DNA of 61,353 nucleotides, filler included. It is 6 parts of 6 records of this genome, joined end to end, with 100 filler letters (N's around TTAATTAATTAA, not from the genome) between each part and the next. Parts side by side here need not be neighbours in the genome. Positions count along the whole stretch, not along the records: positions 55,855 to 61,353 come from SRR31147125_17269; 5 more parts are not named here. One strand, 5' to 3'. A program made the translations under genes and the position numbers. The notes under the pieces were generated by a model. That model saw nothing but the letters and a program-made list of their open reading frames with translations. It was not told where the DNA came from and searched no databases. Shown here piece after piece: positions 8,863 to 61,353 of this stretch. Each line of letters starts with the position of its first letter. Position 1 is the stretch's first letter.

Positions 8863-8879
8863 TAATAAAATATTAGGTT

Positions 8880-9506: not shown

Positions 9507-9519
9507 AGATCTACCTTAT

Positions 9520-11159: not shown

Positions 11160-11259
11160 NNNNNNNNNNNNNNNNNNNNNNNNNNNNNNNNNNNNNNNNN
11201 NNNTTAATTAATTAANNNNNNNNNNNNNNNNNNNNNNNNNNNNNNNNNNNNNNNNNNNN
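11160..11259. other. Artificial contig-joining linker
   Basis: N-run, TTAATTAATTAA (stops in all frames), N-run; base composition changes across it. Confidence 0.98.
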
Positions 11260-11434
11260 CTCTCCCATGAACGCTCCCCTAGGGTGCAAATTCCAGACAC
11301 GCTGCCCTTACAAAACAGAGGCATGCGAACGGGTTCGACCCCGGCTTGAGCCCGTCAATCCGGAAAAAGAGGATGGGCACGCCGTTGCCTGTCATAACTG
11401 GCGGACACTGCCGTTTGCTTCAAGAAAGGATTAA
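11260..11434 (+). CDS. C-terminal fragment of an oligopeptide/dipeptide ABC transporter ATP-binding protein
   Basis: Manual translation SPMNAPLGCKFQTRCPYKTEACERVRP...HAVACH matches the Cys-rich OppD/OppF C-terminal motif. Confidence 0.85.
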
Positions 11435-11483
11435 GGGCGTGGGGAATTATTGAAAAGCGCGGCACAGGTGTAAAGGAAGATGT

Positions 11484-12236
11484 ATGAAACCGGTCATCGG
11501 CATTACAACCCATCTGGATACCAGCAACCCCAAAAAAGTGTATGCAGCTGTCAGTAACAGCTATATCCATTCCGTACTGATGGCAGGAGGGATTCCGGTC
11601 ATGTTGCCGGTGGTGGAAGATCAGGATGCGGCAATGGAGTATTTGTCGGTTATTGATGGGCTTCTTTTGTCCGGCGGAGAAGATGTCTGTACCATGGTGT
11701 ATGGAGAAAATCCCATCAAAGAGGTGGAGATGTTTTGTCCCCAGCGGGATGCATTCGAGATTGCCCTTTTTACGGCAGCCTTGGAGCAAGACCTGCCGGT
11801 GTTGGGGATCTGCCGGGGACTTCAAGTGATGAATGCCGCAGTTGGCGGGACCCTGTATCAGGATATATTTACCCAATGCGAAAACTGTCTGGGCCATCTT
11901 CCCCAAAAATTGCCGGTGGACTGCCTGTATCACACCATCACCATTGAAAAGAACTCTCTTTTGGCCGAGGTGTTTGGAAAAGAGGAGCTGCGGGTCAACT
12001 CCTACCACCATCAGGCAGTAAAAGATGTGGCCGAATCCTTTCGGGCAACAGCCTTTTCCACGGATAATGTCATCGAGGCCATCGAGCATAATGAGAAGAA
12101 ATTTGCCCTGGGGGTGCAGTGGCATCCGGAGGATCTGACCATCAAGCATCCCCATTTCATCGCGCTGTTCAAAGCGTTGGTCAATGAGGCATTACACTTC
12201 AAAAGGAAGACATGTCTAGACGCGTGTAATGGTTGA
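11484..12236 (+). CDS. Gamma-glutamyl-gamma-aminobutyrate hydrolase family protein (peptidase C26)
   Basis: KPVIGIT, GLLLSGGEDV, LGICRGLQ (nucleophile Cys), VNSYHHQAV and GVQWHPE. Confidence 0.93.
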   Translation: MKPVIGITTHLDTSNPKKVYAAVSNSYIHSVLMAGGIPVMLPVVEDQDAAMEYLSVIDGLLLSGGEDVCTMVYGENPIKEVEMFCPQRDAFEIALFTAALEQDLPVLGICRGLQVMNAAVGGTLYQDIFTQCENCLGHLPQKLPVDCLYHTITIEKNSLLAEVFGKEELRVNSYHHQAVKDVAESFRATAFSTDNVIEAIEHNEKKFALGVQWHPEDLTIKHPHFIALFKALVNEALHFKRKTCLDACNG

Positions 12237-12817
12237 CATCATTGGAGGAATATGGATGCTCCGGAGCACCACCCCACGATTCGATCATCACTTGATGATA
12301 TTCTCCGGTTTGATTTTGTCGTCTTTGTCATTTTTTGTTTGATCGCGTTTGCCTGTCACCTGACAGGAATTTCGCATTCATGTGGATATTCCCATTTTGG
12401 GTAAGAGGTATAACTGCATCAGCAGGTAGACGCCGATAAAGACTAAAAAAAGAACCATTTCTTTCATTTTCGATTGCCTCCGAATAACCGTTTTCATTTA
12501 ACCGTGAAAATGGTTTTTTATTTTCATGGTTGGCCTTTGTGTCTAAATGACTATAAGCACAATTTAGGCCAATGGCCATAGTTCCGGTAAACCGGGATCT
12601 GCAACGCGCGCCATGGGATTATGGTTTTGAAGTATCGCAACAAAACGATTGGTAACGCTATGTTGCGATGGATTGATTCCCTACCGCTTTAGGAAAATTT
12701 GATAGGAGTCTTCATTTCCTGATTGAATAAGATGGGGTCAAAAACACTTAAATTTACAGAGAGTTGTACTTTCTTACAACAGATTGAAATATGCATACTT
12801 GCTGAAAAGGGATCCAT

Positions 12818-12833
12818 TGGCATGTATCTTGGT
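12818..12833 (+). promoter_or_regulatory. Possible sigma-54 (-24/-12) promoter
   Basis: TGGCATGTATCTTGGT versus consensus TGGCACGnnnnTTGCW; spacing is correct but -12 reads GG instead of GC. About 120 nt upstream of the transporter gene. Confidence 0.3.
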
Positions 12834-12952
12834 TATGATTATTTGCCGAAAACATTGTGTGAAATAAATTGCAAATTCAATTGGAGTTTAAGTTGGGGAG
12901 AAATTTTCAGTCTCGCAACAGTTACTAAAATGAGTATTGGAGGAGGAATATC

Positions 12953-13959
12953 ATGTGGAAATTTTTCGGTAAGATATCAAAAAATTTGATCATTGCCATT
13001 CCGGTAATGATGATTCTGGGATTTCTGTTCGGCATCATTTTCAATGCCGCGTTTCTAAAAAGTTTGATCATTCCGTTTACCTTTCTCATGGTTTACCCCA
13101 TGATGGTGACCCTGAACATTCAGAAGGTGTTTGAGGGGGAGATGTCAAAGCACAACTGTTGACTCAGATCATCAACTTTGGAATCGTTCCAGTTGTCGCT
13201 TATGTGATTGGACTCTTTTTCTTCCGTGAGCAGCCATACATGGCACTGGGGCTTTTGTTGGCAGGACTGGTCCCTACCAGCGGAATGACCATCTCTTGGA
13301 CCGGATTTGCCAAAGGAAATATCGAGGCAGCCGTTAAAATGACGGTTATCGGACTGACCTTGGGGTCCATTGCAACGCCGTTTTACGTCCAGATGCTCAT
13401 GGGCGCATCCATTGAGATTAACTTTGCCAAGGTGATGCAACAGATTGTGGTGATCGTTTTCTTGCCCATGATCGCGGGATTTATTACCAGAAAATATTTG
13501 GTCAAAAAACATGGGGTGAAACCATTTAAAGAGCGTATCGGTCCCAGATTTCCTGCACTCTCCACCTTGGGCGTCATCGGAATCGTCTTCATCGCCATGG
13601 CCCTGAAAGCAAAGGGAATTGCTTCAGCGCCGGGTATGATTCTTTACATCCTCATCCCTTTGACGATCATCTATGGCTTTAATTTTGTGTTGAGCAGTTT
13701 GGTGGGAAAATACTTTTTACCCAGGGGAGACGCCATTGCCCTGGTGTACGGTTCAGTGATGCGAAACCTCTCCATCGCTCTTGCCATTGCAATCAATGCT
13801 TTTGGACAGGAAGGGACAAGCGCCGCACTGGTGGTGGCCATTGCCTACATCATTCAGGTGCAGTCGGCAGCCTGGTATGTGAAGTTCACCGATAAAATTT
13901 TCGGACAATTGCCGGAAAAGATTGACATGGAACCTGCTTTGGCGTCTCGTTCATCATGA
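12953..13959 (+). CDS. ACR3/SBF (arsenite resistance / bile acid:Na+ symporter) family transporter, split by a 1-nt frameshift
   Basis: ORFs 12953..13162 and 13159..13959 join if one G is added to the G5 run at 13135-13139 (…FEGGDVKAQLLTQIINF…). Motifs FLMVYPMM, WTGFAKGN and RNLSIALAIA. Confidence 0.85.
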
Positions 13960-28320: not shown

Positions 28321-28550
28321 TGGACGTATTATTACCGTAATACCTCGTATTACGTTCTCTTTTCCATGACTTAAATTCACTTTCTCGCTGGAAAGTATCA
28401 CACTCTGTATTACGACTAAACAATCGATTTCCAAGGCGGGACAAGGGATTTGGCACTGCTATTATTAGCGTAACGTCTAAGATCTATTTAACGAGTGCTA
28501 ATTTTTTCATTTTCCCTTTTTTGTTCAGTTCTTTGTTCCGTGTCTTTTAG
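28321..28550. promoter_or_regulatory. Candidate oriT region
   Basis: Non-coding gap directly upstream of the relaxase with repeated GTATTA(C)/GTAATAC boxes; the nic site was not identified. Confidence 0.45.
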
Positions 28551-28566
28551 GTGGGAGGATTTTCAT

Positions 28567-31272
28567 ATGCGACCATTCAATGTATCTGGCTCACAAGCAA
28601 TTACTTATTATTATGACCGTGACCCCATCTTCTCCCCTCAAGACTGTTTTTGGCATGGACAAGGGGCTGATGAGTTAAAATTACATGGTAACATCAAACA
28701 AGCTGATTTTGCCAACTTGATTGCCGGTAGTGATAAAAAAGGAAATCAATTAATTCGGGATGGTAGAAACGCTAAGGGACAATCAATTCATCGCAGTGCT
28801 ACTGACATATCATTTTCGGCTCCCAAGAGTCTGAGTTTATCCGCTTTACACGCTGACTTCAAAGACCTATTTGAAGCCCATAAAAAAGCCGTTATCGCCA
28901 CACTGGATTATATCGAATCCAAACACATTTTCATTCGCAAATATCATGATGAACAACAGCAAGTTTACTTGTCACGCAAAGCGGTGTTTGCCGTTTTCCC
29001 TCACTCTACCTCCCGCACTTTAGATCCACAGATTCACAGTCATTGTTTGATACTAAATGTTACGAAATATGACCATAAATACTATGCTTTGTGGAGCGAT
29101 AGTATTTATAGGCACCAACGCTTAATAAATAGTGTTTACTTGAGTAACTTGGCTCATGAAATCCGTCAGCTCGGTTATCCCATCTCACTAAGGAAAGAGG
29201 GCTTTTTTGAAATCACTTCGGTCAAGGATTCGTGGATAAAAATTTTTTCCAAGCGAACACGAGATATCGAAGAAGCTGAGCAGAAAATTCAAGCAGACAC
29301 AGGTGTTTCATCCTTGCCTCCAATAATTCGCAGACAAGTGGTTTTGGCATCTCGTCAAGCCAAAGACAGAAGCGTGACGGCATCTGATCTACATGAATTA
29401 TGGAACTCCCAACTTGACCGCTACGAGTTAATCAAAACTATCCGCAACTCCCGCTCACTTTCCCTGCCTCAACATAAAATCTCCGCTTCTGACTACATCC
29501 GTTTAGCCGTTGCCAATATCCACGAATCCGAGAGCCTTTTTTCTAAGGCAGACTGTATAAACAACGCCCTGCAAATCAGCCGAGGATATTACCGTTATTC
29601 CGATATGGAAAAAGCGTTTCGGCAGTTGGTTAAAGAGCGGGAGATCCTACTTCAACAAATCAACATGAGAGTGTCCTCTCGTTTTAATGAAGCCCTGTTT
29701 ACTTCTCATAAAATGAAGCAGTTGGAAGAAAATCTTTTGCAACGGATTTTTAAGGAAAAAGACAACTGCCAACAAATACTTTCCTCTGAACAAACGGATA
29801 AACATTTATCCGTTTACGATTACTTCACTCAAGGACAAAAAGAAGCCGTTAGCCATATCCTGACCGGCACGGATAGAGTTTCTTTAATACAGGGAGATGC
29901 CGGTGTGGGTAAAACCTCGGCTTTGACGGCGGTGCGGGAAATTCTTGAAACAGAAAACACCCCATTCCGACTCCGTGGTTTGGGATATACCGGCAGGGCA
30001 TCGGAAGAATTGGAGCTTTCTGCGGGAATAGAATCAGACACCATCAGTCATTTTTTACAGGGTAAAAATCTTGAACCAAACGAAGTTTGGTTAGTGGATG
30101 AATCAAGCTTGGTGGGCAGTAGTCAGTTATCCGCTCTGACCGATAAAGCCCTTTCCTATGATGCTCGATTGGTTTTAATCGGTGACTGCCATCAGATCCA
30201 GTCCATTTCAGCCGGACGGTTCTTTACTGACCTCCAAGAGAGCGGACAGATGAAAATCGTCAGCATGAATGAACGCCTCCGGCAGAAAACGCCCAACGCT
30301 CAGAAACTGGTAAGTGAAGTTACTGAGTACCAAATGGGAAAACGGGGAAATTTATCCTCTGTTTTTACCCTGCTGAAGCAAGAAAATAACATCATCGAAA
30401 TTCCGCAACAATCCGAGTGCATCAAAGCACTGGTGACTGATTATTGCGGTCGGAAAAACTATCATGACACCATGATTATAACCGCCACTCGTGAGCATCG
30501 TTTAGCGATTAATCTCTATGTTCGGCAGGAATTACAGCACCGTGGATTGATCGACCAACAAGACCATTTGTTATCGGTGATGACTCCGACTTCACTGACT
30601 GGCACAGATCGTTATTTTGCCCATAGTTACCAAATTGGGCAAAGAGCTTTTGTGAATGCGAAAATTAACGGAATTTCTTTTAATGAGCTAAATCAATCTG
30701 TCATTCCCGCTGGTCAATTAGTGCAAATTACGCAGATAGATAAGCAGTACAATCGCTTGACTCTGGCTATCTCTGACCGATCAAGTGTTAGTATCAGCCT
30801 AAAACACCACGCTCACAGATTATCTTGGTACTCCGACAGAAAAGCGGGATTCAGTGTGGGGGATAAAATTGTCTTCTTAAAAAATGACCGTCAACTCTCA
30901 GTCAAAAACGGCAATACCGGAATCATTAAAGCTCTGGATGATACTGGAAATCTTTCGATCAAACTGGATTCGGGAAAACAGCGTCAATTCAACCTTAAAA
31001 AATACGCCTCCCTTGACCACGCTTACGCTATTTCTGCACTCAAGAGCCAGGGTGCCACCGCTAAAAATGTAATTTTTTATGCCGACTCAGCTTTTCCCTC
31101 TATGAACCGAACGGAGTTCCTATACGTGGCGTTAAGTCGTGCTCAATACAGCACCAAACTATACACGGATAATATTAAAAACATTCAAAAACAGTTTGAG
31201 AGAGGGCAGGAAAAAACCTCCACGCTGTCACCTGTGAAAAAATTGAGTAAGGGCTTCGGTTTGGGGATGTAG
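28567..31272 (+). CDS. mobF: MOBF (TrwC-like) relaxase-helicase
   Basis: N-terminal AITYYY, DISFSAPKSLS, HSTSRTLDPQIHSH (HUH/3H), helicase QGDAGVGKT, LVDESS, SQGAT and YVALSR. Confidence 0.95.
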   Translation: MRPFNVSGSQAITYYYDRDPIFSPQDCFWHGQGADELKLHGNIKQADFANLIAGSDKKGNQLIRDGRNAKGQSIHRSATDISFSAPKSLSLSALHADFKDLFEAHKKAVIATLDYIESKHIFIRKYHDEQQQVYLSRKAVFAVFPHSTSRTLDPQIHSHCLILNVTKYDHKYYALWSDSIYRHQRLINSVYLSNLAHEIRQLGYPISLRKEGFFEITSVKDSWIKIFSKRTRDIEEAEQKIQADTGVSSLPPIIRRQVVLASRQAKDRSVTASDLHELWNSQLDRYELIKTIRNSRSLSLPQHKISASDYIRLAVANIHESESLFSKADCINNALQISRGYYRYSDMEKAFRQLVKEREILLQQINMRVSSRFNEALFTSHKMKQLEENLLQRIFKEKDNCQQILSSEQTDKHLSVYDYFTQGQKEAVSHILTGTDRVSLIQGDAGVGKTSALTAVREILETENTPFRLRGLGYTGRASEELELSAGIESDTISHFLQGKNLEPNEVWLVDESSLVGSSQLSALTDKALSYDARLVLIGDCHQIQSISAGRFFTDLQESGQMKIVSMNERLRQKTPNAQKLVSEVTEYQMGKRGNLSSVFTLLKQENNIIEIPQQSECIKALVTDYCGRKNYHDTMIITATREHRLAINLYVRQELQHRGLIDQQDHLLSVMTPTSLTGTDRYFAHSYQIGQRAFVNAKINGISFNELNQSVIPAGQLVQITQIDKQYNRLTLAISDRSSVSISLKHHAHRLSWYSDRKAGFSVGDKIVFLKNDRQLSVKNGNTGIIKALDDTGNLSIKLDSGKQRQFNLKKYASLDHAYAISALKSQGATAKNVIFYADSAFPSMNRTEFLYVALSRAQYSTKLYTDNIKNIQKQFERGQEKTSTLSPVKKLSKGFGLGM

Positions 31273-31277
31273 AGGTA

Positions 31278-31723
31278 TCTGTCATTTCGACTGGAATGTT
31301 TTGGAGTGAAACGGAAAAACATGGAACGGAGAAATCCCTTTTGACAGTACAAAATTTATTTGTATAAAATGAAACAAAATAATTTTAAATTTATGAAAGA
31401 TCATCATTACTACATTTACATCATGGCAAGTAAAAGCGGTACTTTATATGTTGGCGTAACCAGTAATTTAGAGCAAAGAGTTCAGCAACATAAACAAGGT
31501 AATTTGGCAGGATTTACCCAAAAATATGATTGTCATAAATTAGTATATTACGAAGAGACTAACGATGTAATTTCCGCTATTGCTCGTGAAAAACAGATAA
31601 AAAAATGGAGACGAGAAAAAAGGAATTTCTCATTAAACAGATGAATCGCAGTTGGCAAGATCTGAGTAAGCAATGGCAATAAGGGATTTCTCCATTCCGC
31701 TTCGCTCCAGTCGAAATGACAGA
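31278..31723 (+). mobile_element. 446-bp element: GIY-YIG nuclease gene bounded by REP-like inverted repeats
   Basis: Perfect 18-bp terminal IR tctgtcatttcgactgga/tccagtcgaaatgacaga and 13-bp inner IR at 31328-31340 / 31681-31693; no target duplication seen. Confidence 0.85.
31393..31682 (+). CDS. Stand-alone GIY-YIG nuclease (UPF0213-like), 1-nt frameshift near the 3' end
   Basis: YYIYIMAS…TLYVGVTSNLEQRVQQHK…GFT.KY…LVYYE…AIAREKQIKKW. Adding one A to the run near 31616-31621 restores KKEFLIKQMNRSWQDLSKQWQ*, the family-typical tail. Confidence 0.88.
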
Positions 31724-31780
31724 CTTTTTCTTTACTTCAAACACCAACACTAAAAACTATCAAATCGAAAGGAAGACGTC

Positions 31781-32140
31781 ATGACCACCACCAAAACCCT
31801 CCGCTTATCCGGTCATCATCTCAACATCGCCGACCAAATCAGCGACCAATTCGGCATGTCGTTTACCGACGTGGTACGGCATCTTTTAGAGCAATACCAT
31901 CAGGAACAGATAGAGAGCCACAGCATTCAGAAATCATTGCACAACATCCAACGGCGGATTGAAGATTTGGGCAAGCCCGATGCGGAGAATGAAGGCGATT
32001 TTTCAGCAAATTCCTCTTGGGACATGGTTGTGACTGATCTACAAGCCATTAAACGGGATTTAAGCATGGTTAAACAAATCCTGTTGATAATCGGGCAAGC
32101 CGATCCCCGCACCAAATCAATGATAGGGAGTCTGGAATGA
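31781..32140 (+). CDS. Ribbon-helix-helix / CopG-like protein (TrwA-like relaxosome accessory)
   Basis: TKTLRLS…IADQISDQFGMSFTDVVRHLLE; ATGA-coupled to the coupling protein gene. Confidence 0.65.
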   Translation: MTTTKTLRLSGHHLNIADQISDQFGMSFTDVVRHLLEQYHQEQIESHSIQKSLHNIQRRIEDLGKPDAENEGDFSANSSWDMVVTDLQAIKRDLSMVKQILLIIGQADPRTKSMIGSLE

Positions 32141-33900
32141 TCGCTAAAAACCCCGCTCATATTGCCTTTGCCTCGTTCTTATCAGCAGAGAAAATGCGGT
32201 TCAAGATGTTCCTACATTTGATTCTGGCACTGATTGGCTTGCACTTATTCACTACCGTTGTTTTCTTACTGCTGATAACCCAACCGCCTCAGCTTCGGAT
32301 TAGCGGACTGTGGCTATTTTCCCACGCTATGACGGAAATAAATCCTGATTACCAAGTCATTTTCCCTGACAGTCACGGAAACTTCCGCACCACCGTCAAA
32401 ACCGTGGCTCAGTCAGCGGAAGTCGGAGATTACGTCGAAGACTATGGGCTTATTTTGCAACGCTGTTTTTATCTGTCGGCACCCGTGTACCTGCTTTTGC
32501 CGATATTACTGTTTTGGTTTCGGCATCGCTCACGGAAGCAACTGCAAGCGTTTCATATCAGAGGCAGTCGTTTATTGACTGCTCCCCAACTAAACAAACT
32601 CATGCGGTCAAAGCAGGAATCATCTGATTTGCCCCTGGGCAAAGTCACTATGCCTTGCAATGCGGAAAATAAGAGTGTTTTCATTCTCGGTCGTCCGGGT
32701 AGTGGCAAGTCAACCGCTCTCAACCAAGTTATCCGCAAACTGGAAGGACGTCAGGCAAAAGTGCTGATTTATGATTTCAAGGGCGAGTATCTGGAAAGAT
32801 TCTATAATCCCGATACGGACATCATTTTTAATCCCCTAGATGCCAGATCCGTGACATGGAATCTGTTTGCCGAAATCAGACAAAGCACTGATATTGACTC
32901 CATCGCCTCATCACTGATTCCTCCCGCTCATGCTCACGCCGATCCATTCTGGTCTGATGCCGCACGTCAAGTATTTACTGGAATCCTCCACTATCTGCAT
33001 CATCACAATTTTCGCACCAACGCCGATATCTGGAAGATGATTACATCTGACGTATCCACTTTAAGAGAAGCCCTGTTGAGTGTTCCGCAATCCGCTAAAG
33101 CGACTCGTTATTTGGAAACCGCTGATGCAGATGACGGCAGTTCCAAACAGGCAATCTCGATTTTATCAGTGATGATGCAGTATTGCTCAGCTTGGGAGTA
33201 TCTGACTGACAGTGCAGACGGTTTTTGCCTGACCGACTGGCTAAAGCAAGGAAAAGGACGGATTTTCCTGACCTCTAATGCCAATATCTCCGCTACTCTC
33301 AAACCTATTCATTCTCTGTTCATTGATTTGCTGGCAAAACTGATTTTGAGTCAATCAGATCAAGATGAGACATCACTTTTTCTGATTCTGGACGAGTTCG
33401 GCACCCTGCAAAAACTTCCGGCAGTCGTAAACCTGTTGACTCTCGGCAGATCCAAAGGAAGTAGTACATGGTTGGGTATTCAGGATGTTGGACGAATTGA
33501 TTCTATCTACGGCAAAGACTTGAGACAGACCATCGTCAATGCTTGCGGAACACATCTCATCTTTGGTCTTAATGACAGCGTGACCGCCAAATACGCTTCT
33601 GATCTATTAGGAGAACATGAATCTTTCATGGCTGATAAATCATTATCAGTCGGCAACAGCAAGCACAAAGACAGTGCCGGTATCAGTTATCGACGGCAGA
33701 AAAATCCGCTACTGCTTCCCTCGGAAATAAACCAGTTGCCGGATTTGACTGGCATCGTTCGTTTTCCCAATTATTTTCCTGCCACGACTCAATTCACATA
33801 CCGTCATTTTGAGAAGCAATGCGAGCATTTTGTCATCCGTCCCGATTTGCAAATGACAACTAATGAGGAGGAAACCACGCATGAAGAATCCGCATCATAA
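32137..33900 (+). CDS. Type IV coupling protein (TrwB/TraD-like)
   Basis: Two N-terminal TMs, HIRGS, Walker A GRPGSGKST, IYDFKGE, NPLDARS, LDEFGTL and GRSKG. Confidence 0.93.
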   Translation: MIAKNPAHIAFASFLSAEKMRFKMFLHLILALIGLHLFTTVVFLLLITQPPQLRISGLWLFSHAMTEINPDYQVIFPDSHGNFRTTVKTVAQSAEVGDYVEDYGLILQRCFYLSAPVYLLLPILLFWFRHRSRKQLQAFHIRGSRLLTAPQLNKLMRSKQESSDLPLGKVTMPCNAENKSVFILGRPGSGKSTALNQVIRKLEGRQAKVLIYDFKGEYLERFYNPDTDIIFNPLDARSVTWNLFAEIRQSTDIDSIASSLIPPAHAHADPFWSDAARQVFTGILHYLHHHNFRTNADIWKMITSDVSTLREALLSVPQSAKATRYLETADADDGSSKQAISILSVMMQYCSAWEYLTDSADGFCLTDWLKQGKGRIFLTSNANISATLKPIHSLFIDLLAKLILSQSDQDETSLFLILDEFGTLQKLPAVVNLLTLGRSKGSSTWLGIQDVGRIDSIYGKDLRQTIVNACGTHLIFGLNDSVTAKYASDLLGEHESFMADKSLSVGNSKHKDSAGISYRRQKNPLLLPSEINQLPDLTGIVRFPNYFPATTQFTYRHFEKQCEHFVIRPDLQMTTNEEETTHEESAS

Positions 33901-34861
33901 GAAAGAACTCAAAGAAAAAAGAATGACAGCCATGCTGACCTTTTCTTTAGGGAAAATAGAAAACTACCTACAAGATCCCAAACTTACGGAAATCATGGTC
34001 AATCCTGACGGTAAGCTCTTGATTGACCACTTAGAGACTGGCCGTCAAGATACGGGGCTGCTCATCCCGCCGACTGAAACCTCTCGCCTGATAAAACTGG
34101 TAGCCAGTCAAGCGGGATGTGTCTGCAATGAGGCTAATCCCACTCTATCGGCTGACTTGCCCATGTATAAAGCTCGATTTCAGGGGATGATACCGCCAGT
34201 GGTGGCTCAACCTTGCTTTGCCATCCGCAAACATGCCCGACGAATATTCTCCCTCTCGGCTCTGGTTCAGCAGGGAGTATTGACCACGCCCCAAGCTAAA
34301 GTCATTCAGCAAGCGATTGGGGAACAACAAAACATCCTGATTGCCGGTGGCACAGCTTCCGGCAAAACCACCTTTGCCAATGCCTTGCTATTCGAAATCG
34401 GCAGAATGAACCAACGCTTAATCATCATTGAAGACACACCAGAGTTACAAGTTGACGCTGAGGATTTCCTCAAACTGACCACCACCGATGAACTTGGCAT
34501 GAATGCTTTGCTTAAATCATCGCTTCGGCTCCGTCCTGACCGCATCATTGTGGGAGAGCTGAGAGATGGAGCTTCCGCTCTCACATTCCTGAAATCCATT
34601 AATACCGGACATAAAGGCAGTCTAACAACCTTACACGCTAACGGCGTAAATGGGGCTTTAATCCGCTTGGAGCAATTGATTCAAGAAATATTGCCCCAAG
34701 CCCCTTGCCATCTGATAGCCGAAACCATTGATTTGGTCATTTTCATTGTCAAAGAGGGAAACAACCGAAGAGTGCGAGAAATGGGGCAGGTAAAGGGACT
34801 TGATGAGGTGAGCGGTAATTACCTGATTGATTACCTTGAACAAACAAAAAAAGAGGGCTAA
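33881..34861 (+). CDS. trbB: VirB11/TrbB ATPase
   Basis: EIMVNPDG, GGTASGKTT, IEDTPEL, LRLRPDRIIVGELR, NTGHKG and TLHAN. Confidence 0.93.
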   Translation: MKNPHHKKELKEKRMTAMLTFSLGKIENYLQDPKLTEIMVNPDGKLLIDHLETGRQDTGLLIPPTETSRLIKLVASQAGCVCNEANPTLSADLPMYKARFQGMIPPVVAQPCFAIRKHARRIFSLSALVQQGVLTTPQAKVIQQAIGEQQNILIAGGTASGKTTFANALLFEIGRMNQRLIIIEDTPELQVDAEDFLKLTTTDELGMNALLKSSLRLRPDRIIVGELRDGASALTFLKSINTGHKGSLTTLHANGVNGALIRLEQLIQEILPQAPCHLIAETIDLVIFIVKEGNNRRVREMGQVKGLDEVSGNYLIDYLEQTKKEG

Positions 34862-34871
34862 AGCCCTCCCT
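34845..34871 (-). terminator. Terminator overlapping the stop codon of cassette gene 1
   Basis: Minus strand gagggc-ttta-gccctc-ttttttt. Confidence 0.7.
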
Positions 34872-35331
34872 CGATATCTGATATCAACCGTAAAACTTTG
34901 TTAGCAAAGTAGCAAAAAGCGGTTTCTTGAACTGATTTGGTTAACTGATATATCCCACCGTTTTTGAATTTATTGATGAGATGTTGAGAACCAAAATCAT
35001 TCAAAAATTGTAGCCCAAATTTATCAAAATACTCTGAGTTAACACAAGCCAGATAATTATTAGGTTCAACACTATCTTTTGCCCATTGTTTAATCGGATT
35101 AGTGAAGAAAAATGCCGCACTGTACGCAACAGGTAGATTAGGATCATAATTGTCCTCAGTGATATCAAGAATTTTCAGCAAACGCTCAATATCATAACGC
35201 CGTTGAACATCTGGCTCATTGAAATCACTAAACAGGAAATCAAACTCAGCAAAATTTTCCTCGGTATTGATACGATCAATTACTTCGGAAAGAGATAAAG
35301 AAGCCGACGAAGATGTAATGTTTTCAATCAT
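34858..35331 (-). CDS. Hypothetical acidic protein (157 aa), cassette gene 1
   Basis: ORF from the ATG at 35331 (MIENITSSS…SDIEGGL*); no motif recognised. Confidence 0.7.
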   Translation of the reverse strand: MIENITSSSASLSLSEVIDRINTEENFAEFDFLFSDFNEPDVQRRYDIERLLKILDITEDNYDPNLPVAYSAAFFFTNPIKQWAKDSVEPNNYLACVNSEYFDKFGLQFLNDFGSQHLINKFKNGGIYQLTKSVQETAFCYFANKVLRLISDIEGGL

Positions 35332-35384
35332 GGTAAGAAAATTAAGAAATAAAATTAAAAACACTCGAAAAAGCAGAAAGTGAC

Positions 35385-35485
35385 TTTAGGTTCGGTCAAA
35401 TAAATTTTTAACAATTATGACTATTTCAAATCTTAAAAAATTATTTTACGGGTTCTAAAGGCACTTTCTACAATGAGGAAGAGTT
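35385..35485. repeat. Conserved upstream repeat, copy A
   Basis: 75-bp imperfect palindromic core (35385-35459) plus ggaagagtt 18 nt later; about 10 differences from copy B. Confidence 0.85.
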
Positions 35486-35497
35486 TTTTTTACAAGA

Positions 35498-35527
35498 CAA
35501 AAAAAGAGAGAGCTTAAAGCCCTCCCT
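35498..35527 (-). terminator. Terminator overlapping the stop codon of cassette gene 2
   Basis: Minus strand gggagggc-tttaa-gctctctc-ttttttt; homologous to 34845-34871. Confidence 0.7.
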
Positions 35528-36434
35528 TGATTGATTGCAAATACTGATAAGTCGCTGATTGACGCCAAGCAGACAGCACTTGCTCCCGACTATGGAACTG
35601 ACACTCAAACCACGGCATCCCTTGTAAATCACTAACCTGTTTCTTTTGCACAATCAATATCTTGGTCGATGTGTTGGTAGTAGCAAAAATGCCATTAGGT
35701 AAAGCTACCATCCCCAAGACTCGGAAATGATCCCAGAAGAATCTGATGACTTTTTTATTGGCAGTCGGTTTACCATAAGCAGGGCAAACAAAGGCTAAAA
35801 CACCACTATCCTTTAGATAACACTGACAACGATGCAGATACAGGCTTTGCGAGAGAACATTACCACTGCGGAAGGAGAAGGGATGGAGCGGAGCATACAC
35901 GTCCAAGTTAAACGGCGGGTTACCCACGATGTAATCACATTGAGGAATCGCATTCATGGTCAACATACTGGTGTGCTGAATCTGAGCTTGGGGAAACAGT
36001 TTCTTGGAGATGAGATAAGCCTCTTCATCAATCTCCACACCATACAAGTTTTGAGTCGGCAGATGGTTGAAAAAGCTTCCTTTCCCGGAACAAATATCAG
36101 CCACAGTCGCCTCCGGCTCAATCTCCAACATCTCCACCATCAAGCGACAGATAGAGTCGGGGGTGAAGAACTGACCTTGTTCAACAGATTGCTTGGCTTT
36201 AGCGTATTCCCGAAAACTATCAAAATCACGCCTCTTAAAACTATGAAGCCGACCTTTACCGCTGAACTGCTGAAACGCCCACTGTAAATCCTTAGTATAC
36301 AAGGCTCTACGGTTGTTTTTCTGCCTGATTTGTTTACTTCGATTAATGCCATACTTCGTTGGTAAATACTTGGCAGGGGCTTCATATGAACCTTGATTTG
36401 ATAAAGCCGGTGATGAGGTGAGAAGTGTATTCAT
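35514..36434 (-). CDS. Orphan N6-adenine DNA methyltransferase, cassette gene 2
   Basis: GQFFTP, motif I ADICSGKGSF, YGVEID and motif IV VGNPPF; no restriction or specificity gene adjacent. Confidence 0.88.
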   Translation of the reverse strand: MNTLLTSSPALSNQGSYEAPAKYLPTKYGINRSKQIRQKNNRRALYTKDLQWAFQQFSGKGRLHSFKRRDFDSFREYAKAKQSVEQGQFFTPDSICRLMVEMLEIEPEATVADICSGKGSFFNHLPTQNLYGVEIDEEAYLISKKLFPQAQIQHTSMLTMNAIPQCDYIVGNPPFNLDVYAPLHPFSFRSGNVLSQSLYLHRCQCYLKDSGVLAFVCPAYGKPTANKKVIRFFWDHFRVLGMVALPNGIFATTNTSTKILIVQKKQVSDLQGMPWFECQFHSREQVLSAWRQSATYQYLQSIKGGL

Positions 36435-36482
36435 GAATAATGAATTAAAAATTAAAAATACACTTCCTTAAAAAAGCGGGGA

Positions 36483-36584
36483 TTTAGGTTCAGTCACAAT
36501 AAATTTTTATCAATTATGACCATTTTTAAGTCTAAAAAATTATTTGACGGGTTCTAAATCTTGGTCTTTATAATTGGAAGAGTT
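36483..36584. repeat. Conserved upstream repeat, copy B
   Basis: 76-bp core (36483-36558) plus ggaagagtt 18 nt later. Confidence 0.85.
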
Positions 36585-36686
36585 GTATTTTATTTAGTTG
36601 AATTTAGCGATTAATTGAGTAGGTTTTATCGATGACAAAAGTAAAAATAAAAGGAAAATAGTTTAATTATTTTTATTGGTTGAGGA

Positions 36687-37082
36687 ATGAAAATTATGCT
36701 TTCCGACTTTCAAAAAAATGAGCTTTGTGATATAGATTTAATGCGTGTTAAAGATGTTGCCAAGTTTTTGGGCAAGTCCCCATCATGGGTATATGCCAAT
36801 TACAAAATACTTGGTGGTGCGAAAGTCGGTGGCTCATTGTTTTTTCCCTCAAAGGAGAAGATATATGAGCGTATATTTCGACAAAAAGAAGAAATTTTGG
36901 AGATACGAGTTCCGATATCAGAAACAACGCTACACCAAAGCGGGATTCAAAACCAAAAAAGAAGCAATCGCCGTCGAAGCGGAAAGAAGGAAGGAATTAA
37001 AAGAGGCAATGACGGTTTCGGTGCGGACAACGACCACAATAACCGAGATCCCAACCGACATGGACTTCTTGGAACTGGTTAA
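36687..37082 (+). CDS. Excisionase-like HTH protein overlapping the integrase start
   Basis: LMRVKDVAKFLGKSPSWVY…KVGGSLFF is an HTH_17/Xis-like pattern. Confidence 0.65.
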   Translation: MKIMLSDFQKNELCDIDLMRVKDVAKFLGKSPSWVYANYKILGGAKVGGSLFFPSKEKIYERIFRQKEEILEIRVPISETTLHQSGIQNQKRSNRRRSGKKEGIKRGNDGFGADNDHNNRDPNRHGLLGTG

Positions 37083-37941
37083 TTTACGTTTGGATTATCT
37101 GCAAGCATATGAATCCAAAAAGTATTATGAGGATAATTTAACCAGTACAAAACGTTGGATTAAACAGTGGGGAAAATTAGATTGTACAGCCATTACTTCC
37201 CAAATGGTTCAGGATTACATGATTAAGCTCAAAAATAGTGTTTCTGCATTTACCGCTAATAAAGAACTGCGTTATTTACGAGCAACCTTTAATTTTGGCA
37301 TCAAGAAACCGAATGAGTGGATCACTATTAATCCTACGACTGGAATCAGTTTTTTTCCCATTGAGAAAAAGAAAAAACGGATACCACCTCAAGAAGATGT
37401 TCGCCGGGTTATTATGGTAGCTGATGCCGATACTCAGGATTACCTCTGGACAATTGCTTTAACATTGGGAAGAATGACCGAAATTAATCAATTGACTTGG
37501 GATGATATTGATTTTGCCAACAATTCTGTCACGCTGTACACTCGAAAGAAAAAAGGTGGACACCTCACTCCACGAGATATTCCCATGAGTACAAAATTAC
37601 AGAATATTTTCCAACGTAGAAACCAAAACCGTAATAGGGAAACGCCCTATGTGTTTTGGCATAAATATTACAGTCGGAAACAAGGTAAGTGGGTAACAGG
37701 CAGATATCATGACCGCAAACGCATCATGAAAACACTGTGTGCCAAAGCCGGTGTTGAGTATTTTCGGTTTCATCCGCTCCGGCATTTCGGAGCCTCGTTG
37801 TTGGAAAGAGAAGGTGTGTCGATTAAAGTGATTCAAGAAATCTTAGGACATGAGAACCGTCGCACAACGGAAATTTACCTGCATTCTTTTTCCGGTTCCG
37901 GTAAAGAAGCCATGAACACTTTAGAGACAGCTTTGCAGTAA
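36865..37941 (+). CDS. Tyrosine recombinase / phage-type integrase
   Basis: aaggag RBS; arm-binding N-terminus (WRYEF…GFKTKKEA); catalytic R (TLGRMTEI), HxxR (FHPLRH), LGH and Y (TEIYLH). Confidence 0.95.
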   Translation: MSVYFDKKKKFWRYEFRYQKQRYTKAGFKTKKEAIAVEAERRKELKEAMTVSVRTTTTITEIPTDMDFLELVNLRLDYLQAYESKKYYEDNLTSTKRWIKQWGKLDCTAITSQMVQDYMIKLKNSVSAFTANKELRYLRATFNFGIKKPNEWITINPTTGISFFPIEKKKKRIPPQEDVRRVIMVADADTQDYLWTIALTLGRMTEINQLTWDDIDFANNSVTLYTRKKKGGHLTPRDIPMSTKLQNIFQRRNQNRNRETPYVFWHKYYSRKQGKWVTGRYHDRKRIMKTLCAKAGVEYFRFHPLRHFGASLLEREGVSIKVIQEILGHENRRTTEIYLHSFSGSGKEAMNTLETALQ

Positions 37942-55754: not shown

Positions 55755-55854
55755 NNNNNNNNNNNNNNNNNNNNNNNNNNNNNNNNNNNNNNNNNNNNTT
55801 AATTAATTAANNNNNNNNNNNNNNNNNNNNNNNNNNNNNNNNNNNNNNNNNNNN
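55755..55854. other. Artificial contig-joining linker
   Basis: N-run, TTAATTAATTAA, N-run. Confidence 0.98.
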
Positions 55855-55953
55855 TATTTTTCTAGCCGAAGCCACAATACTTCGACTAGATCCTTTCTCT
55901 TTCTTCATACGATCATACCGTTGTATAGTAGCCTCTCTGTTCCTGATGCTCTT
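55855..55953 (-). pseudogene. Possible IS110-family transposase C-terminal remnant
   Basis: Translates to …ATIQRYDRMKKEKGSSRSIVASARKI, resembling the IS110 C-terminal KG..A.VA.ARK motif; preceded by an in-frame stop. Only 33 codons. Confidence 0.4.
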
Positions 55954-56006
55954 TCAACAGTGTACCAAACTTACCTCTCACGTTTTACTTTTTTACCATT
56001 TTCTCT

Positions 56007-59000
56007 TTAATGGTTTTCAAGTTGAAAAATTAATTGTATACAATAATTATTGGTGTTTTTTTCTTTATAGGGGGAAATCAAATAGCAATTAAATATTTTT
56101 AAATCATTTTTAAATTTTTCAAGACCTCCTTTATGATTTGGATCGATTTGAATTTTTGTATGATCATTTTCAATAAAAATATGCAATTTATTTTCTTTTA
56201 TTGTTGAGGAAATCCATAATGTAATTTCTGATAAATTAGTATTTTTCTTTTTTATATTAGTTTTTATATGTAATAGAAGATTTTTCAATTCTCTTTCAGG
56301 ATAAATAATGTTCTTATTTTTAATTGAATCAATATTCTGGATAACATTTTTAAAAACTCCTTCCTTAGGGTAAATATCTATTAGCAAATTGTAAGCATTT
56401 GATGGGAACTGGGCAATGATTGAGTGAATATTACATAAATCTTCATGGTAGATTTCACGATTATCAATCAATGTGTATAGCGTATCGATAAAATTATTAT
56501 AGAATTCGATTCTATCAATTACTACTTCAGGATCTTTACTTATTGCAGCTGAAAGTTCATGGAAAGTTTCTTTATTTAAATTATAGTAGCTAAGCTTAGA
56601 ATTAAAATATTGGAAAATTTTACTTTTTAGAATTATTTGATGTTTATTAAATAGAGTTGCTAAGTCTACATCTATTAATCTTTTTATAATCAGCCAGTTA
56701 CTAAAAATTGCTTTGCTATACTTTATTATAGATTCATAATGCATAGAATTTTTTCTATGTGTAGAGAAATCTTCCCAAAGCTTTTTGTTATAAAATCCTA
56801 ATGTTCTGAAATCCATTAAAGTTAATTTTTCTTCTACATTGTGTGGAGAATGAAAGATTTCAGCTATTTTAGTTTTTAATAGAAAAATGAATTCAACAAT
56901 TTCTAATTGTTGTTTTGTACTTTCAATTTGTTTAATATTTTTTAGATTTTCTATTTTAATATGTTCATAGGCAGCATATTTTTTTGAGGCACGTATAATA
57001 TCATAAATTCCATTATTGTCAATCATTTGAAAACTTTCTTGAATTCTTTTGAAATATGCTAAACTTTGGTTATATCGATTTTTAATTAATGAAGTAGTGT
57101 GATAAAGAATATTCTGAAAAGTATTATCGCTAATTCTATTTTCATACGATGAGGAAATTACCATTTTTGTTATTTCTTGACAAAATTTGTATTTATTTGA
57201 GGATCTTAAAACAGTAATAGCTGAAAATTTATATCGTACAGCTATTACTAAAGGTTTATTATTTGTTGTTATTTCATTAAAATTAGTAATTAGATTTTTA
57301 ATCTCGATCGTAGCAATATAACTAGCCATTTCTGAAATTAAAAAACGAAATTCCTGAAATACCAGTGGTTCAATTTGTAGTCTGTAAACTTCAAATGATA
57401 ATAAATATAATACTGCAAAAAGATTTGATTCAGGATTTTTTGATTCATTTTCAATATTGCATAAAATATTGACCAAGAAATCAAATAGCTTTACTCTATA
57501 TCTAGTATGTAGTAAAGAGTAATCAACTAAATTTTTAAATTCATACATTTTCATTATTAGAATACTTGATAATTCATATATATCTTTGTCATTATTAGAA
57601 AAATAAAAATCATGGGGAATGTTTGATAAATTTGTTCTGTCCATGATTTCCAATCTATTTTTTCTATCATTTACAAAATTGTGCATATAAGTACTATGAA
57701 AATTATATAATTGTAAATATCGTTCATGTTCACAGATTGGACAGTTTGCTGAAGTATAATAATATAAGTTGAATTTTTGAATGAAATCAATTTTTATATT
57801 AGCAGTTTTCAGTTCATATTGAGACTCTATAAATCTAAGATTCTTTTCCTTTTTAACATGAGGAATTTTTATTTGGAATATATTTTTATAAAATGTAAAC
57901 ATATCATCAATAAGATTAGAGAATAAGATGATAACTAATATATTTTTTGTATTGATTAATGATGCTGAAAATTCACTTATTGCTTGACCTGTGATGCTGT
58001 TAAAATCTAAATAAATGCAATTTTCTTCGGAAAGTGCATAGCTTTGATTAAAATTAATTACTCTCATTACTGGTTCAGGAAAGATTTCCTTTAGTTTCTG
58101 AATACACTTCTCAAAATAATTTATCTCTTCATAATTTTTGTATGTCAATAAAAAATTTTCAATCTTATTTTCACTTTTCCAAACGAAAATTGATTTTATT
58201 ATGCTATCCAGAAATGGGGATCCATTATTAAATAAACTAGATTTATTAATATAAAATGTATAATGTCTTCCAATATTTTTACCAATATGAGAATAATGTA
58301 AAATTTTCTCTCTAATGAAAAAATCTTTTATTTCTGAAGGAAGTTCGAATTCTTTTTTTTCAATAATTTCTTCTTGATAATGTGGTGAAATGAATTTTGA
58401 AATACTACCTAGGTCATTGCTTTTTTTAATTAGTTTGCTTAACAAAAGCTTCTTTTTCTGTGTTTCGTTTTTGTTTTTTGTATAAATACTAATTATTGGA
58501 GTTTGAATATCCCATGTAGTTAATCTTTTAATATTATAATCTCTATTATTTACAAGACATAATATACATATTGGATTAGCATAATCTCTTTTTACTTGCT
58601 TTACTAATCTTCTTATGGTTTCAGAAGATGAGATTATTGATGTAATAATTATTACATCGACTCCTTTCTTAAAAAGTTTTATTCTTCTGGGAACATTAAT
58701 ATCTACATCATCAAAAGCATTATGTATATTTCGAGTATTGATACCAGATAATCTTGCAAATTCTAGTGAAAGATTTCTTTGCTGATTATGATCATAAAGT
58801 ATGCTTGTTTTGGGGGTGATTATATGGTTATTTTTAATGAATAATAAATAAAGAGCAAGAGCATAACCAAGAATTTTATCTTTAACAAAAAGTTTTTCCT
58901 GATTTATCCAACTATTTACTATCTTTAATTTTGGTGTTATTAATGGTTCTGTAGAACTACTTGAGCTTACAATTTTTTCTAAATCACTATAGAAAAAATC

Positions 59001-60791
59001 AATAATGTTTGTAAAATTTAAGAAAACCCTTTTATCATTAAGAATTAAAATCAATGCGTTATCATTTTGAAAATGAAATAATAAGTTTCTTTGTTCATTT
59101 AAGCTTAATTTTTTAAAACTCGATAATTGTTTTAATGAATTTATTTGATTGGGTCTATTATAAATTTCATTTAATATATTAATAACATTCTGATTTCCTC
59201 CTAGCCAGAAAATTCTATTACCTTTTTCTAAAATAATTATTGGATCATAAACATTTTCTTCATTTGGTGAGGCATGATCGAGATTAATAATATCTGATTT
59301 GCTTTTTTTTACTTTTTCAAGCAGTAGTTCATTTGCATCTTCTGCTATTGTCATTAATGTATCAGGTCCAATATTATCATTAGTGAAATAGACAACGATT
59401 CCGTTTGGATTTGTTATTAAACTTAACGATAAAAGGAGATCAATTATCTTTGATTTGTTTACAGAGTCTAGAGAGCCATCATAGTGGACTTTCAAGATTA
59501 ATAATATATTTAAGTCTTCTTTGATTATGTTTTGAATTGTAAAATTGAATAAATCTAAATCTTTTTTTGTAAAATCAAAATACTGGACGATCCATTTTAT
59601 GTCACTATTAACTTTTTGTGACTTAAAATTAAAACTTATTATTTCTTTATATGGGATTAATTTAATTCTGGTGAACGTGCCTGGATGATAGAATGAGGAG
59701 CTACTTTTCTCCTTGACCCATTTTGCACGAGTATATCCCCCTTTTTGATAACCCCCAATTAATTTTTTTGTATGCACTAAAAATAACCCATTATACTTAT
59801 TATTTATTCTATTTATTCTATATAATCCTTTTGTTCCTCGAATTTCTTCATTTTGTTTTCTTGTTGACCATTTACTAAAAGACCATTTCAAAGTAGAGCC
59901 TTCCCCCACTACTTTATGTGTATGAGCTAGACTTTTTTTATGTGCTTGAATCAATAAATCACTTACAAGCCCCATTCCAGAATCGCCAAAATATATTTCA
60001 ACTATACTTTTAAAGGAGTTATTTAGTACCCAAGAATTAAAATTGGAATCAATAAAGTTCGTATTATCATTTTTTATTAAAGATTGTACTGAAAAGATAG
60101 CAATAGAGAAAATAGCATAATTAGATATCGAATTTGCATGCTCTTTTACATTTTTTAATAACTCGGTAAAAATAACATTGTATAATGCTAGTGCATCTAT
60201 TTTGCCTAAACCTTTAGTGTTATTGCCTAGTAATACATCAATTTTTTGTTTGATCCTTTTTAATGTACGCAAATCTGAGTTTGCATCTATCCAAGTTATT
60301 GGTAATACTTTTGTTCTATCTGCAATATGTGAAAACTTTTGACCAATTTGATTAAATTGATTTTCTGGTTCGAATGATTCATTAAATAAATTAAAATTTA
60401 TAGAAGTAGATTTGGTAAAGTACCTTTCAGTTATAAATATATGATTATTCTTTTTTAAATGTTTACATCGCATACTTATGTCAAATTCTATATACTTAAG
60501 AAACTGATTACACTTTCTTATTCTTTCATTTTCTGTAGTTGTGGGTAATGCAATATAGATATCAAAATCATTTTTTAGAAAAAACTCAGCGATAAGGCAT
60601 AACTGAGTTGCAACACTGATCGACATAAAAGTAGCTTTAGAAAAATCAAAAAAAATGCCTTTTGTTAAAATAATGTCCTTATTTTCTATTACTGATTCTA
60701 ATGGTAAGATAGTTGTAAATGCACTTTTTAATTCCGAAGAATCAATTCGCTTATCATTATTGAAGAGATGAATAGGTTTGTTTTTTCTCAT
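56007..60791 (-). CDS. 1594-aa multidomain protein: STAS-like, HATPase, two degenerate PRTase-like domains, helical region and possible second HATPase-like domain
   Basis: FDFSKATFMS (STAS-like); ELLKNVKEHA, FGDSGMGL, RGTKGL and PGT (GHKL N/G1/G2/G3 boxes); DVIIITSIISSSETIRRL and IYLDFNSITGQAI (PRPP-loop-like); CPICE. Extremely AT-rich. Confidence 0.65.
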   Translation of the reverse strand: MRKNKPIHLFNNDKRIDSSELKSAFTTILPLESVIENKDIILTKGIFFDFSKATFMSISVATQLCLIAEFFLKNDFDIYIALPTTTENERIRKCNQFLKYIEFDISMRCKHLKKNNHIFITERYFTKSTSINFNLFNESFEPENQFNQIGQKFSHIADRTKVLPITWIDANSDLRTLKRIKQKIDVLLGNNTKGLGKIDALALYNVIFTELLKNVKEHANSISNYAIFSIAIFSVQSLIKNDNTNFIDSNFNSWVLNNSFKSIVEIYFGDSGMGLVSDLLIQAHKKSLAHTHKVVGEGSTLKWSFSKWSTRKQNEEIRGTKGLYRINRINNKYNGLFLVHTKKLIGGYQKGGYTRAKWVKEKSSSSFYHPGTFTRIKLIPYKEIISFNFKSQKVNSDIKWIVQYFDFTKKDLDLFNFTIQNIIKEDLNILLILKVHYDGSLDSVNKSKIIDLLLSLSLITNPNGIVVYFTNDNIGPDTLMTIAEDANELLLEKVKKSKSDIINLDHASPNEENVYDPIIILEKGNRIFWLGGNQNVINILNEIYNRPNQINSLKQLSSFKKLSLNEQRNLLFHFQNDNALILILNDKRVFLNFTNIIDFFYSDLEKIVSSSSSTEPLITPKLKIVNSWINQEKLFVKDKILGYALALYLLFIKNNHIITPKTSILYDHNQQRNLSLEFARLSGINTRNIHNAFDDVDINVPRRIKLFKKGVDVIIITSIISSSETIRRLVKQVKRDYANPICILCLVNNRDYNIKRLTTWDIQTPIISIYTKNKNETQKKKLLLSKLIKKSNDLGSISKFISPHYQEEIIEKKEFELPSEIKDFFIREKILHYSHIGKNIGRHYTFYINKSSLFNNGSPFLDSIIKSIFVWKSENKIENFLLTYKNYEEINYFEKCIQKLKEIFPEPVMRVINFNQSYALSEENCIYLDFNSITGQAISEFSASLINTKNILVIILFSNLIDDMFTFYKNIFQIKIPHVKKEKNLRFIESQYELKTANIKIDFIQKFNLYYYTSANCPICEHERYLQLYNFHSTYMHNFVNDRKNRLEIMDRTNLSNIPHDFYFSNNDKDIYELSSILIMKMYEFKNLVDYSLLHTRYRVKLFDFLVNILCNIENESKNPESNLFAVLYLLSFEVYRLQIEPLVFQEFRFLISEMASYIATIEIKNLITNFNEITTNNKPLVIAVRYKFSAITVLRSSNKYKFCQEITKMVISSSYENRISDNTFQNILYHTTSLIKNRYNQSLAYFKRIQESFQMIDNNGIYDIIRASKKYAAYEHIKIENLKNIKQIESTKQQLEIVEFIFLLKTKIAEIFHSPHNVEEKLTLMDFRTLGFYNKKLWEDFSTHRKNSMHYESIIKYSKAIFSNWLIIKRLIDVDLATLFNKHQIILKSKIFQYFNSKLSYYNLNKETFHELSAAISKDPEVVIDRIEFYNNFIDTLYTLIDNREIYHEDLCNIHSIIAQFPSNAYNLLIDIYPKEGVFKNVIQNIDSIKNKNIIYPERELKNLLLHIKTNIKKKNTNLSEITLWISSTIKENKLHIFIENDHTKIQIDPNHKGGLEKFKNDLKIFNCYLISPYKEKNTNNYCIQLIFQLENH

Positions 60792-60990
60792 TGTTTATAC
60801 CTGTAATAATAATTATTATAATATATAAATGAGAATTTGCAATTAAATATATGGGAATTAGAAAATTAGAAAATGCTTACAAAGTAATAAAATGAATAAG
60901 CTGGTTTCAAGATTAATTTTTTGTATAAGAATATTATGGGTATAGTAATTGAAAAACTATAAGAATTAGACAATAATTACAAAAAATTAA

Positions 60991-61353
60991 TCACTGCGTA
61001 AACGATATCCCCCCATCTCCCATGCTTCCCACTAGGTCTATCTGACCTTTGCCGGTTACCGGTTCTTTAAGCCCATCCTTATCTTCATTCACGTACTTCT
61101 CAAACCAGCTCTCCATATCACCTTTTAATTCAGTTATAACTTTCTGGTAGTTGGGGCCATCGATCAGGTTGATTCGTTCATCGGGATCTTGGGTTAGGTG
61201 GTAGAGTTCATTGGGGCCATCGGGGTAGCGGAATACATATTTCCATTCCCGGGAGCGGATCATGCGTACCGGGCCATATTCATCATAGACCACTACCTGC
61301 GATTCATTATCATCTGCTGTTCCCGTCTCAAGTACATTTTTAAAGCTCTTTCC
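60991..61353 (-). CDS. Sulfatase-family hydrolase, C-terminal fragment
   Basis: GKSF…YDEYGPVRMIRSREWKYV…ELYHLTQDPDERINL; the frame is open to the window end. Confidence 0.85.
   Translation of the reverse strand, partial: GKSFKNVLETGTADDNESQVVVYDEYGPVRMIRSREWKYVFRYPDGPNELYHLTQDPDERINLIDGPNYQKVITELKGDMESWFEKYVNEDKDGLKEPVTGKGQIDLVGSMGDGGISFTQ

Follow-up and report, generated by a model that had tools for sequence, protein, structure and literature searches.

What does a gene of 1594 codons do when no Pfam model matches its product, and does it act alone? The gene in question is carried by contig SRR31147125_17269 (positions 55,855 to 61,353), the last part of a window of 61,353 nucleotides (nt), the window being the whole stretch of joined contigs that was analysed. 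A preliminary description, made from the sequence by eye, took the gene for a horizontally acquired single-gene sensor built from STAS-like, GHKL ATPase and phosphoribosyltransferase (PRTase)-like domains. Its relatives show it to be part of a two-gene module for which there is no Pfam or PADLOC model, the other gene encoding a receiver (REC) domain joined to a kinase. We give about an even chance to the view that the giant gene supplies the sensor kinase of a conflict module of two genes, probably anti-phage, in which a PRTase sensor acts through a His-Asp relay on a kinase effector.

The partner gene lies directly downstream of the giant gene in 17 of 17 close loci and in 6 of the 7 distant loci with downstream DNA (L006, L012 and L024-L026 being too short downstream to judge, and L006 and L017 being two halves from one genome). 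Its start overlaps or touches the giant-gene stop, within a few bases, and it is translationally coupled to the giant gene in these 23 of 24 relatives. The product, of about 520 amino acids (aa; 516-539, one cut by a contig end), consists of a REC domain and an APH/choline-kinase-like domain, with the REC phospho-Asp and the kinase Lys and Glu present in 23/23 sequences and the kinase HxDxHxxN motif and Asp in all 22 complete ones. The partner matches REC and APH(9)/methylthioribose kinase; it also scores against TCAD9, though only the L023 copy exceeds the cut-off, and PADLOC gave no match for four partners. A search for a conserved partner of the response-regulator type, which the preliminary description had suggested, thus found one, and the claim of a single-gene system falls with it.

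Trees of the giant gene and its partner, built with FastTree, agree over 13 close loci (Mantel rho 0.88, 0/5000 permutations), which shows the two genes to be transferred as a unit. No other neighbour is conserved in the 19 close-clade loci. Three loci show the genes in altered states: L036 carries a kinase-only partner remnant (8930-9760), with neither REC nor giant gene within 10 kb, near genes that we named McrBC-like by eye, while in L005 (9998-14782) the giant gene is broken by one stop and in L019 (9935-14670) by two frame changes, the partner being intact in both, as would result from decay or from sequence error.

Full-length homologues of the giant protein number 22, with identities of 31-36%, and its residues 1-1164 match 213 clusters at E-values up to 0.001 (the best 150 of 213 listed). 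Named hosts of the family are Dyadobacter, Mucilaginibacter, Chlorobium, Balneola, Ignavibacteriaceae, Cloacimonadales and Gemmatimonadaceae, and a distant clade comes from metagenome contigs with a GC content of 0.43-0.72. Residue counts given below out of 122 refer to an alignment of the query with those 121 proteins, out of 162, that measure 1500-1900 aa. Pfam returned no match for the query protein (none to HisKin-conflict, PF22561, or to Ter-system models), PADLOC 2.0 profiles only Csx20 (E 0.04), NCBIfam only weak PRTase matches, including pyrE, and in a PDB profile search no match had an E-value under 0.06. Matches in BFVD are to single-domain PRTases and kinases only, the plasmids, phages and viral contigs searched hold no copy of the gene, and an Atlas feature score of 0.80 to a HisKin-conflict cluster serves as a lead only. 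Domain parsing, as the preliminary description had advised, was done on AlphaFold models of residues 1-810 (predicted local distance difference test, pLDDT, 84) and 601-1594 (pLDDT 88), which confirm the STAS, GHKL, first PRTase and C-terminal histidine-kinase catalytic folds (Table 1).

The C-terminus has a kinase fold: residues 1461-1592 superpose on the catalytic (CA) domain of VanS (Z 14.8, root-mean-square deviation (rmsd) 2.4, 124 residues aligned). A histidine kinase is also the top Foldseek match for the 601-1594 model, and homologue P0130 scores above cut-off with Pfam HATPase_c. The N-box residue N1512 is kept in 116/122 sequences, and the G1-box column holds Asp in 0/122 (Asn in 74, Tyr in 30), in keeping with the degenerate HATPase-like C-terminus first described. 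The change from Asp to Asn could mean either a dead domain or the use of another nucleotide; a histidine kinase that uses GTP has precedent, in the part of the source available (PMC4064291). Upstream of this domain, H1317 is a candidate phospho-acceptor: its column is invariant in 48/48 sequences, and a His stands within three residues of it in 120/122. It does not lie in a dimerization and histidine phosphotransfer (DHp) helix, belongs to no H-box or HisKA motif and precedes the N-box by about 195 residues, so that the earlier statement that the protein has no HisKA His-box is correct as to the motif but overlooked a conserved His.

One natural loss bears on the link between this region and the partner. 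In the L028 variant (6553-13226; protein P0118) the giant gene lacks the conserved His and the C-terminal Asn and has no partner; its sister P0099 likewise lacks His and C-terminal Asn, the two being the only His-less pair in the 122, with L028 as the single locus known for the pair. With n=1, this loss ties the His and the C-terminal domain to the receiver. A complex prediction for the C-terminal 571 aa of the L001 protein with REC, run without alignments, scored 0.00 and speaks neither for nor against contact. Separately, the L028 giant gene directly follows a patatin gene, a possible effector swap.

The middle of the protein holds the two PRTase-like domains. PRTase-1 matches orotate and adenine PRTases (OPRT, Z 15.6; APRT, Z 16.5). 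PRTase-2 was not isolated by a fold search of the 601-1594 model and its profile matches none of the PDB sequences, but in homologues P0142 and P0065 the corresponding region exceeds the cut-off of Pfam Pribosyltran, the pyrE_Therm profile matches homologue P0057, CPxC end included, and hhalign relates PRTase-2 to PRTase-1 (E 0.0015). The claim of two such domains is therefore upheld, and the motifs quoted for them, CPIC included, are present in the sequence. An adjacent acidic pair in the phosphoribosyl pyrophosphate (PRPP) loop occurs in 0/122 sequences for PRTase-1 and in 0/122 for PRTase-2, so that the loops indeed lack the canonical DD, but a single Asp is retained in 63/122 PRTase-1 loops and, as D929, in 119/122 PRTase-2 loops. 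Four residues of PRTase-2 (H835, H843, C1017 and C1020) are invariant in 122/122 and likely form one metal site. With the acidic pair gone, the non-canonical PRTases likely act as sensors, as had been proposed.

In the N-terminal half, a fold search with the 1-810 model matches residues 1-143 to STAS structures (Z 8.8 to 3oir, Z 8.3 to 3f43) and residues 160-385 to SpoIIAB (Z 10.2, rmsd 3.1, 138 aligned), N214, D270, G274, G322 and G371 of this GHKL domain each being present in 122/122. The STAS-like start and the ATPase with intact N and G boxes were thus correctly recognized by eye. The analogy with anti-sigma partner switches is not supported: at position 58, which we take to be the phospho-site by placing the STAS motif, Ser occurs in 0/122 sequences and Thr in 6/122. 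Residues 398-594 received no name from hhalign, the Atlas or the PDB profile search; their beta/alpha part (about 398-530) is STAS-like by secondary structure only, and PurR aligns to residues 521-801, that is, to the winged-helix-like unit plus PRTase-1 (Z 14.6).

The module is patchy, AT-rich and mobile. The partner profile was found in 1/62, 2/229 and 1/78 genomes of three genera, a spread that bears out the horizontal acquisition first suggested, and in 4/401 genomes of a phylum sample, three known carriers included. The module is lower in GC than its flanks in 18/21 loci, and integrases, relaxases or transposases lie near it in several. To compare its surroundings with defence islands, another check advised in the preliminary description, we ran PADLOC on all 166 open reading frames (ORFs) of at least 130 aa that lie no more than 5 kb from one of 24 loci, and on 118 control ORFs in 14 stretches from 5 of the carrier genomes. 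A system was counted where two cognate PADLOC genes matched at E up to 1e-30, and lone housekeeping-type matches were dropped (PolA, ABC transporter and IstB in the loci; UvrD, cysteine desulfurase and a partial repeat match in the controls). Two-gene systems occur within 5 kb in 6/24 loci versus 0/14 controls (p 0.049), namely Gabija (L003), Lamassu (L004), short Argonaute (L011), IetAS (L023), PDC-M01 (L024) and Septu (L027), and in six loci the very next genes belong to Gabija, Lamassu, short Argonaute, Septu or PDC systems. By this count the enrichment is modest, and the neighbourhoods make a defence role plausible. L018 was rejected as a further two-gene system (it would give 7/24, p 0.027), its nuclease match (E 6e-11) failing the control threshold. 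Two other gene groups are of note. In L014 (16761-20633) the module is immediately followed by three genes without a name, one of them caspase-like (PADLOC E 3e-18), and then by a Rosmer-like peptidase. Control stretch L050 (2374-7752) brings together a methyltransferase gene, a PRTase III-A-like gene and a CARF gene, a possible uncatalogued defence locus.

Some loci of the distant clade carry additional enzymes. GTP cyclohydrolase II, orotidine monophosphate (OMP) decarboxylase and a short-chain dehydrogenase/reductase (SDR) flank the module in L020, where they lie upstream with a methyltransferase, and in L021, L022 and L023, where they lie downstream; L029 has OMP decarboxylase alone of this cassette, directly downstream. 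The enzyme motifs look intact, and the cassette is found in 0/19 close-clade loci. Its gene content points to nucleotide chemistry as a possible input or output of the module.

Under the conflict-module reading, the non-catalytic PRTase pair would have PRPP or a nucleotide as its ligand, in the manner of PurR and PyrR, PRTase folds that serve as PRPP or nucleotide sensors. The level or identity of the bound nucleotide would change on infection, and this signal would license phosphorylation of H1317, the phosphate coming from the complete N-terminal GHKL domain or from the C-terminal domain with a non-adenine nucleotide. The phosphate would then move to the invariant REC Asp and release the partner kinase, which might phosphorylate a small molecule or protein and so stop growth or viral replication.

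Several points weigh against this scheme. The phosphate donor is ambiguous because the His lies outside any DHp helix and the G1 Asp is missing from the C-terminal domain. The defence enrichment is weak, any strong defence match occurring in 9/24 loci versus 2/14 controls (p 0.12), with a control drawn from 5 genomes only and no defence match within 5 kb in 15/24 loci. Tree congruence is a sign of co-transfer and says nothing of signalling; the joint loss of His, Asn and partner is a single event, seen in sister sequences; and the cassette fits a metabolic or detoxifying role as well.

A more specific form of the idea, which we put forward tentatively, is an immune phosphorelay of an undescribed class, in which a metal-bound tandem pseudo-PRTase would read a nucleotide signal, two GHKL domains would phosphorylate a non-DHp His and the receiver would unleash the APH-like kinase. 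In some lineages the linked GTP cyclohydrolase II/OMP decarboxylase/SDR cassette might make or tune the signal, and one GHKL domain possibly uses a non-adenine nucleotide, Asn replacing the G1 Asp.

The same His-Asp relay and kinase could instead serve against chemical stress, the PRTases sensing a toxic nucleoside, an antibiotic or nucleotide imbalance, the APH-like kinase detoxifying or modifying, and the cassette adjusting or making nucleotide-derived metabolites. By similarity the partner kinase indeed comes closest to kinases of small molecules (spectinomycin phosphotransferase, methylthioribose kinase), four loci have the intact-looking cassette and a fifth the OMP decarboxylase, and most loci have no defence neighbours. 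The extreme patchiness, the integrase, relaxase and defence contexts and the absence of the cassette from the close clade nevertheless make this explanation rather unlikely. Retron type III-A and ShosTA have PRTases as effectors, and on that model PRTase-2 could be a toxic effector, an atypical enzyme consuming PRPP or nucleotides, with the REC-kinase as its antitoxin; the retention of D929, R842 and the four-residue metal site exceeds the needs of a passive fold. We consider this improbable, as no sequence has the acidic pair and the giant gene is intact without a partner in both the window and L028, which is hard to reconcile with an unrestrained toxin. The self-contained STAS/anti-sigma-type switch of the preliminary description, to which the SpoIIAB-like GHKL domain with a STAS domain before it and the partnerless window copy would be suited, is very improbable because the STAS serine is absent, and also in view of the partner in nearly all relatives and of the window copy having fewer conserved residues left than any other member of its clade, a pattern that an orphan would show.

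The window copy is indeed peculiar. That its ORF is real, intact and far richer in AT than the sulfatase gene beside it was confirmed: GC is 0.248 (0.18 at third codon positions) versus 0.468 in the upstream fragment on the same contig, whose sulfatase identity also holds. Six-frame translation of the window revealed no partner. An 11-codon frame opens just before an IS-like remnant, at the same -13 offset as the partner start in L001 and L004. As for the IS110 scar reported after the gene, an IS110 transposase is the best annotated match, but a weak one (58% over 24 aa). Of 118 conserved positions the query keeps 96, the smallest number among the 42 sequences of its clade, and its branch in the tree is long, though every GHKL residue, the metal ligands and the His are still present. 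The copy has probably become an orphan on which selection is relaxed, an IS110 element having cut off its partner, although the partner may also follow past the end of the contig. DNA of the giant gene was found in one DNA sequencing run, as a small share, with no RNA run listed; that run gave short pieces only and no sequence beyond the contig end. Promoter-type matches number 5, versus 2.5 +/- 1.3 in shuffles.

Table 1. Features of the giant gene and its contig (window coordinates) and of the accessory cassette (coordinates within each locus)
Feature	Position	Strand	Basis or remark
Giant sensor gene, 1594 aa	56007..60791	(-)	No internal stop; GC 0.248
Sigma-70-like promoter match upstream of giant gene	60815..60842	(-)	Consensus match only
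STAS domain, aa 1-143, without phospho-acceptor serine	60363..60791	(-)	AlphaFold model, structure match
Complete GHKL ATPase, aa 160-385	59637..60314	(-)	Fold and conserved residues
Beta/alpha domain, aa ~398-530, and winged-helix-like unit, aa ~531-594	59010..59600	(-)	Secondary structure
PRTase-1, OPRT/APRT fold, aa 595-807	58371..59009	(-)	PRPP loop without acidic pair
PRTase-2, aa 818-1030	57702..58340	(-)	Profiles in homologues
Helical region, aa ~1035-1455, holding conserved His	56427..57689	(-)	AlphaFold model
H1317, candidate phospho-acceptor, loop between two helices	56841..56843	(-)	Conservation and model
C-terminal histidine-kinase catalytic fold, aa ~1459-1594	56010..56417	(-)	Structure match
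11-codon frame, TTG start at -13 from stop	55985..56020	(-)	Possible partner stump, weak
IS110-like transposase C-terminal remnant, to contig end	55855..55953	(-)	E 0.4, weak
Cassette, L020	743-4181		
Cassette, L021	7033-9313		
Cassette, L022	6154-8490		
Cassette, L023	14394-16683		
OMP decarboxylase, L029	14412-15371		

The six contigs of the window (GC 0.26-0.48), probably from different organisms, are joined by five N44-linker-N44 spacers at 11160, 23191, 38115, 43815 and 55755, the last occupying 55755-55854. The true context of the giant gene on its own contig is therefore 363 nt of sulfatase, a 200 nt spacer and 152 nt downstream; the remaining window genes are not its neighbours because the window joins separate contigs, and on the same ground the genes left of 55755 were ruled out as a reference for GC content. 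Those other contigs carry a patatin phospholipase (797-1822, minus strand) matching the PADLOC phospholipase effector (E 7e-73), overlapped by an unnamed 192-aa ORF (222-800, minus strand), possibly a CBASS-like remnant; a subtilase and a second protein, both with type IX secretion tails (4708-9506); and a conjugative element with TrwC relaxase, coupling protein, secretion ATPase and integrase (28495-37941).

Compared with known systems, the module shares with two-component histidine kinase/response regulator pairs the C-terminal catalytic fold, a conserved His and a coupled REC with phospho-Asp. It differs in the loop position of the His far before the N-box and without HisKA motif, in the missing G1 Asp, in a second complete GHKL domain at the N-terminus and in its output, for which it has an APH-like kinase instead of a DNA-binding domain. 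As is the case for the SpoIIAB/SpoIIAA and RsbW/RsbV switches, a STAS domain stands beside a SpoIIAB-like GHKL, but here the two are fused and lack the phospho-Ser, and no sigma factor was seen among the subset of neighbours scanned with Pfam. The resemblance to PurR and PyrR lies in the winged-helix-like unit plus PRTase, whereas here two tandem PRTases without acidic pair sit inside a kinase. In vWA-MoxR-VMAP conflict systems an active APH-like kinase (TCAD9) and REC domains are among the effectors, as in our partner gene, and the portion of the source available lists no histidine kinase among them, unlike here (PMC7159879); no vWA, MoxR or VMAP gene was seen among the scanned subset of neighbours. 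PRTases are signal components of Ter systems, according to the accessible part of PMC7824862, but these and HisKin-conflict (PF22561) have other architectures and partners than the giant gene. HATPase and REC are listed among predicted systems in the Fig. 6 legend of PMC13092281, as far as that excerpt goes. The literature search turned up no description of the architecture, including in the available parts of PMC10910872, bioRxiv 10.64898/2026.09.18.752743 and PMC13712802; Burroughs and Aravind 2020 (J Bacteriol) or Nicastro et al. 2023 (NAR) may already name it.

The result is a two-gene module open to experiment that occurs in Bacteroidota, Chlorobium, Balneola, Ignavibacteriaceae, Cloacimonadales, Gemmatimonadaceae and metagenome lineages of high GC, and the intact copies in the cultured strains Dyadobacter arcticus, Mucilaginibacter galii and Chlorobium ferrooxidans make it directly testable. 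Should it have no role in defence, two GHKL domains serving a His acceptor that lies outside a DHp domain would still make a new kinase layout. If the module does act in defence, it would connect the sensing of nucleotide pools with His-Asp signalling and with an effector kinase, a combination that did not turn up in the literature searched, and if the phosphorelay reading is true, a two-component system with a new histidine-kinase architecture would be acting as an antiviral trigger.

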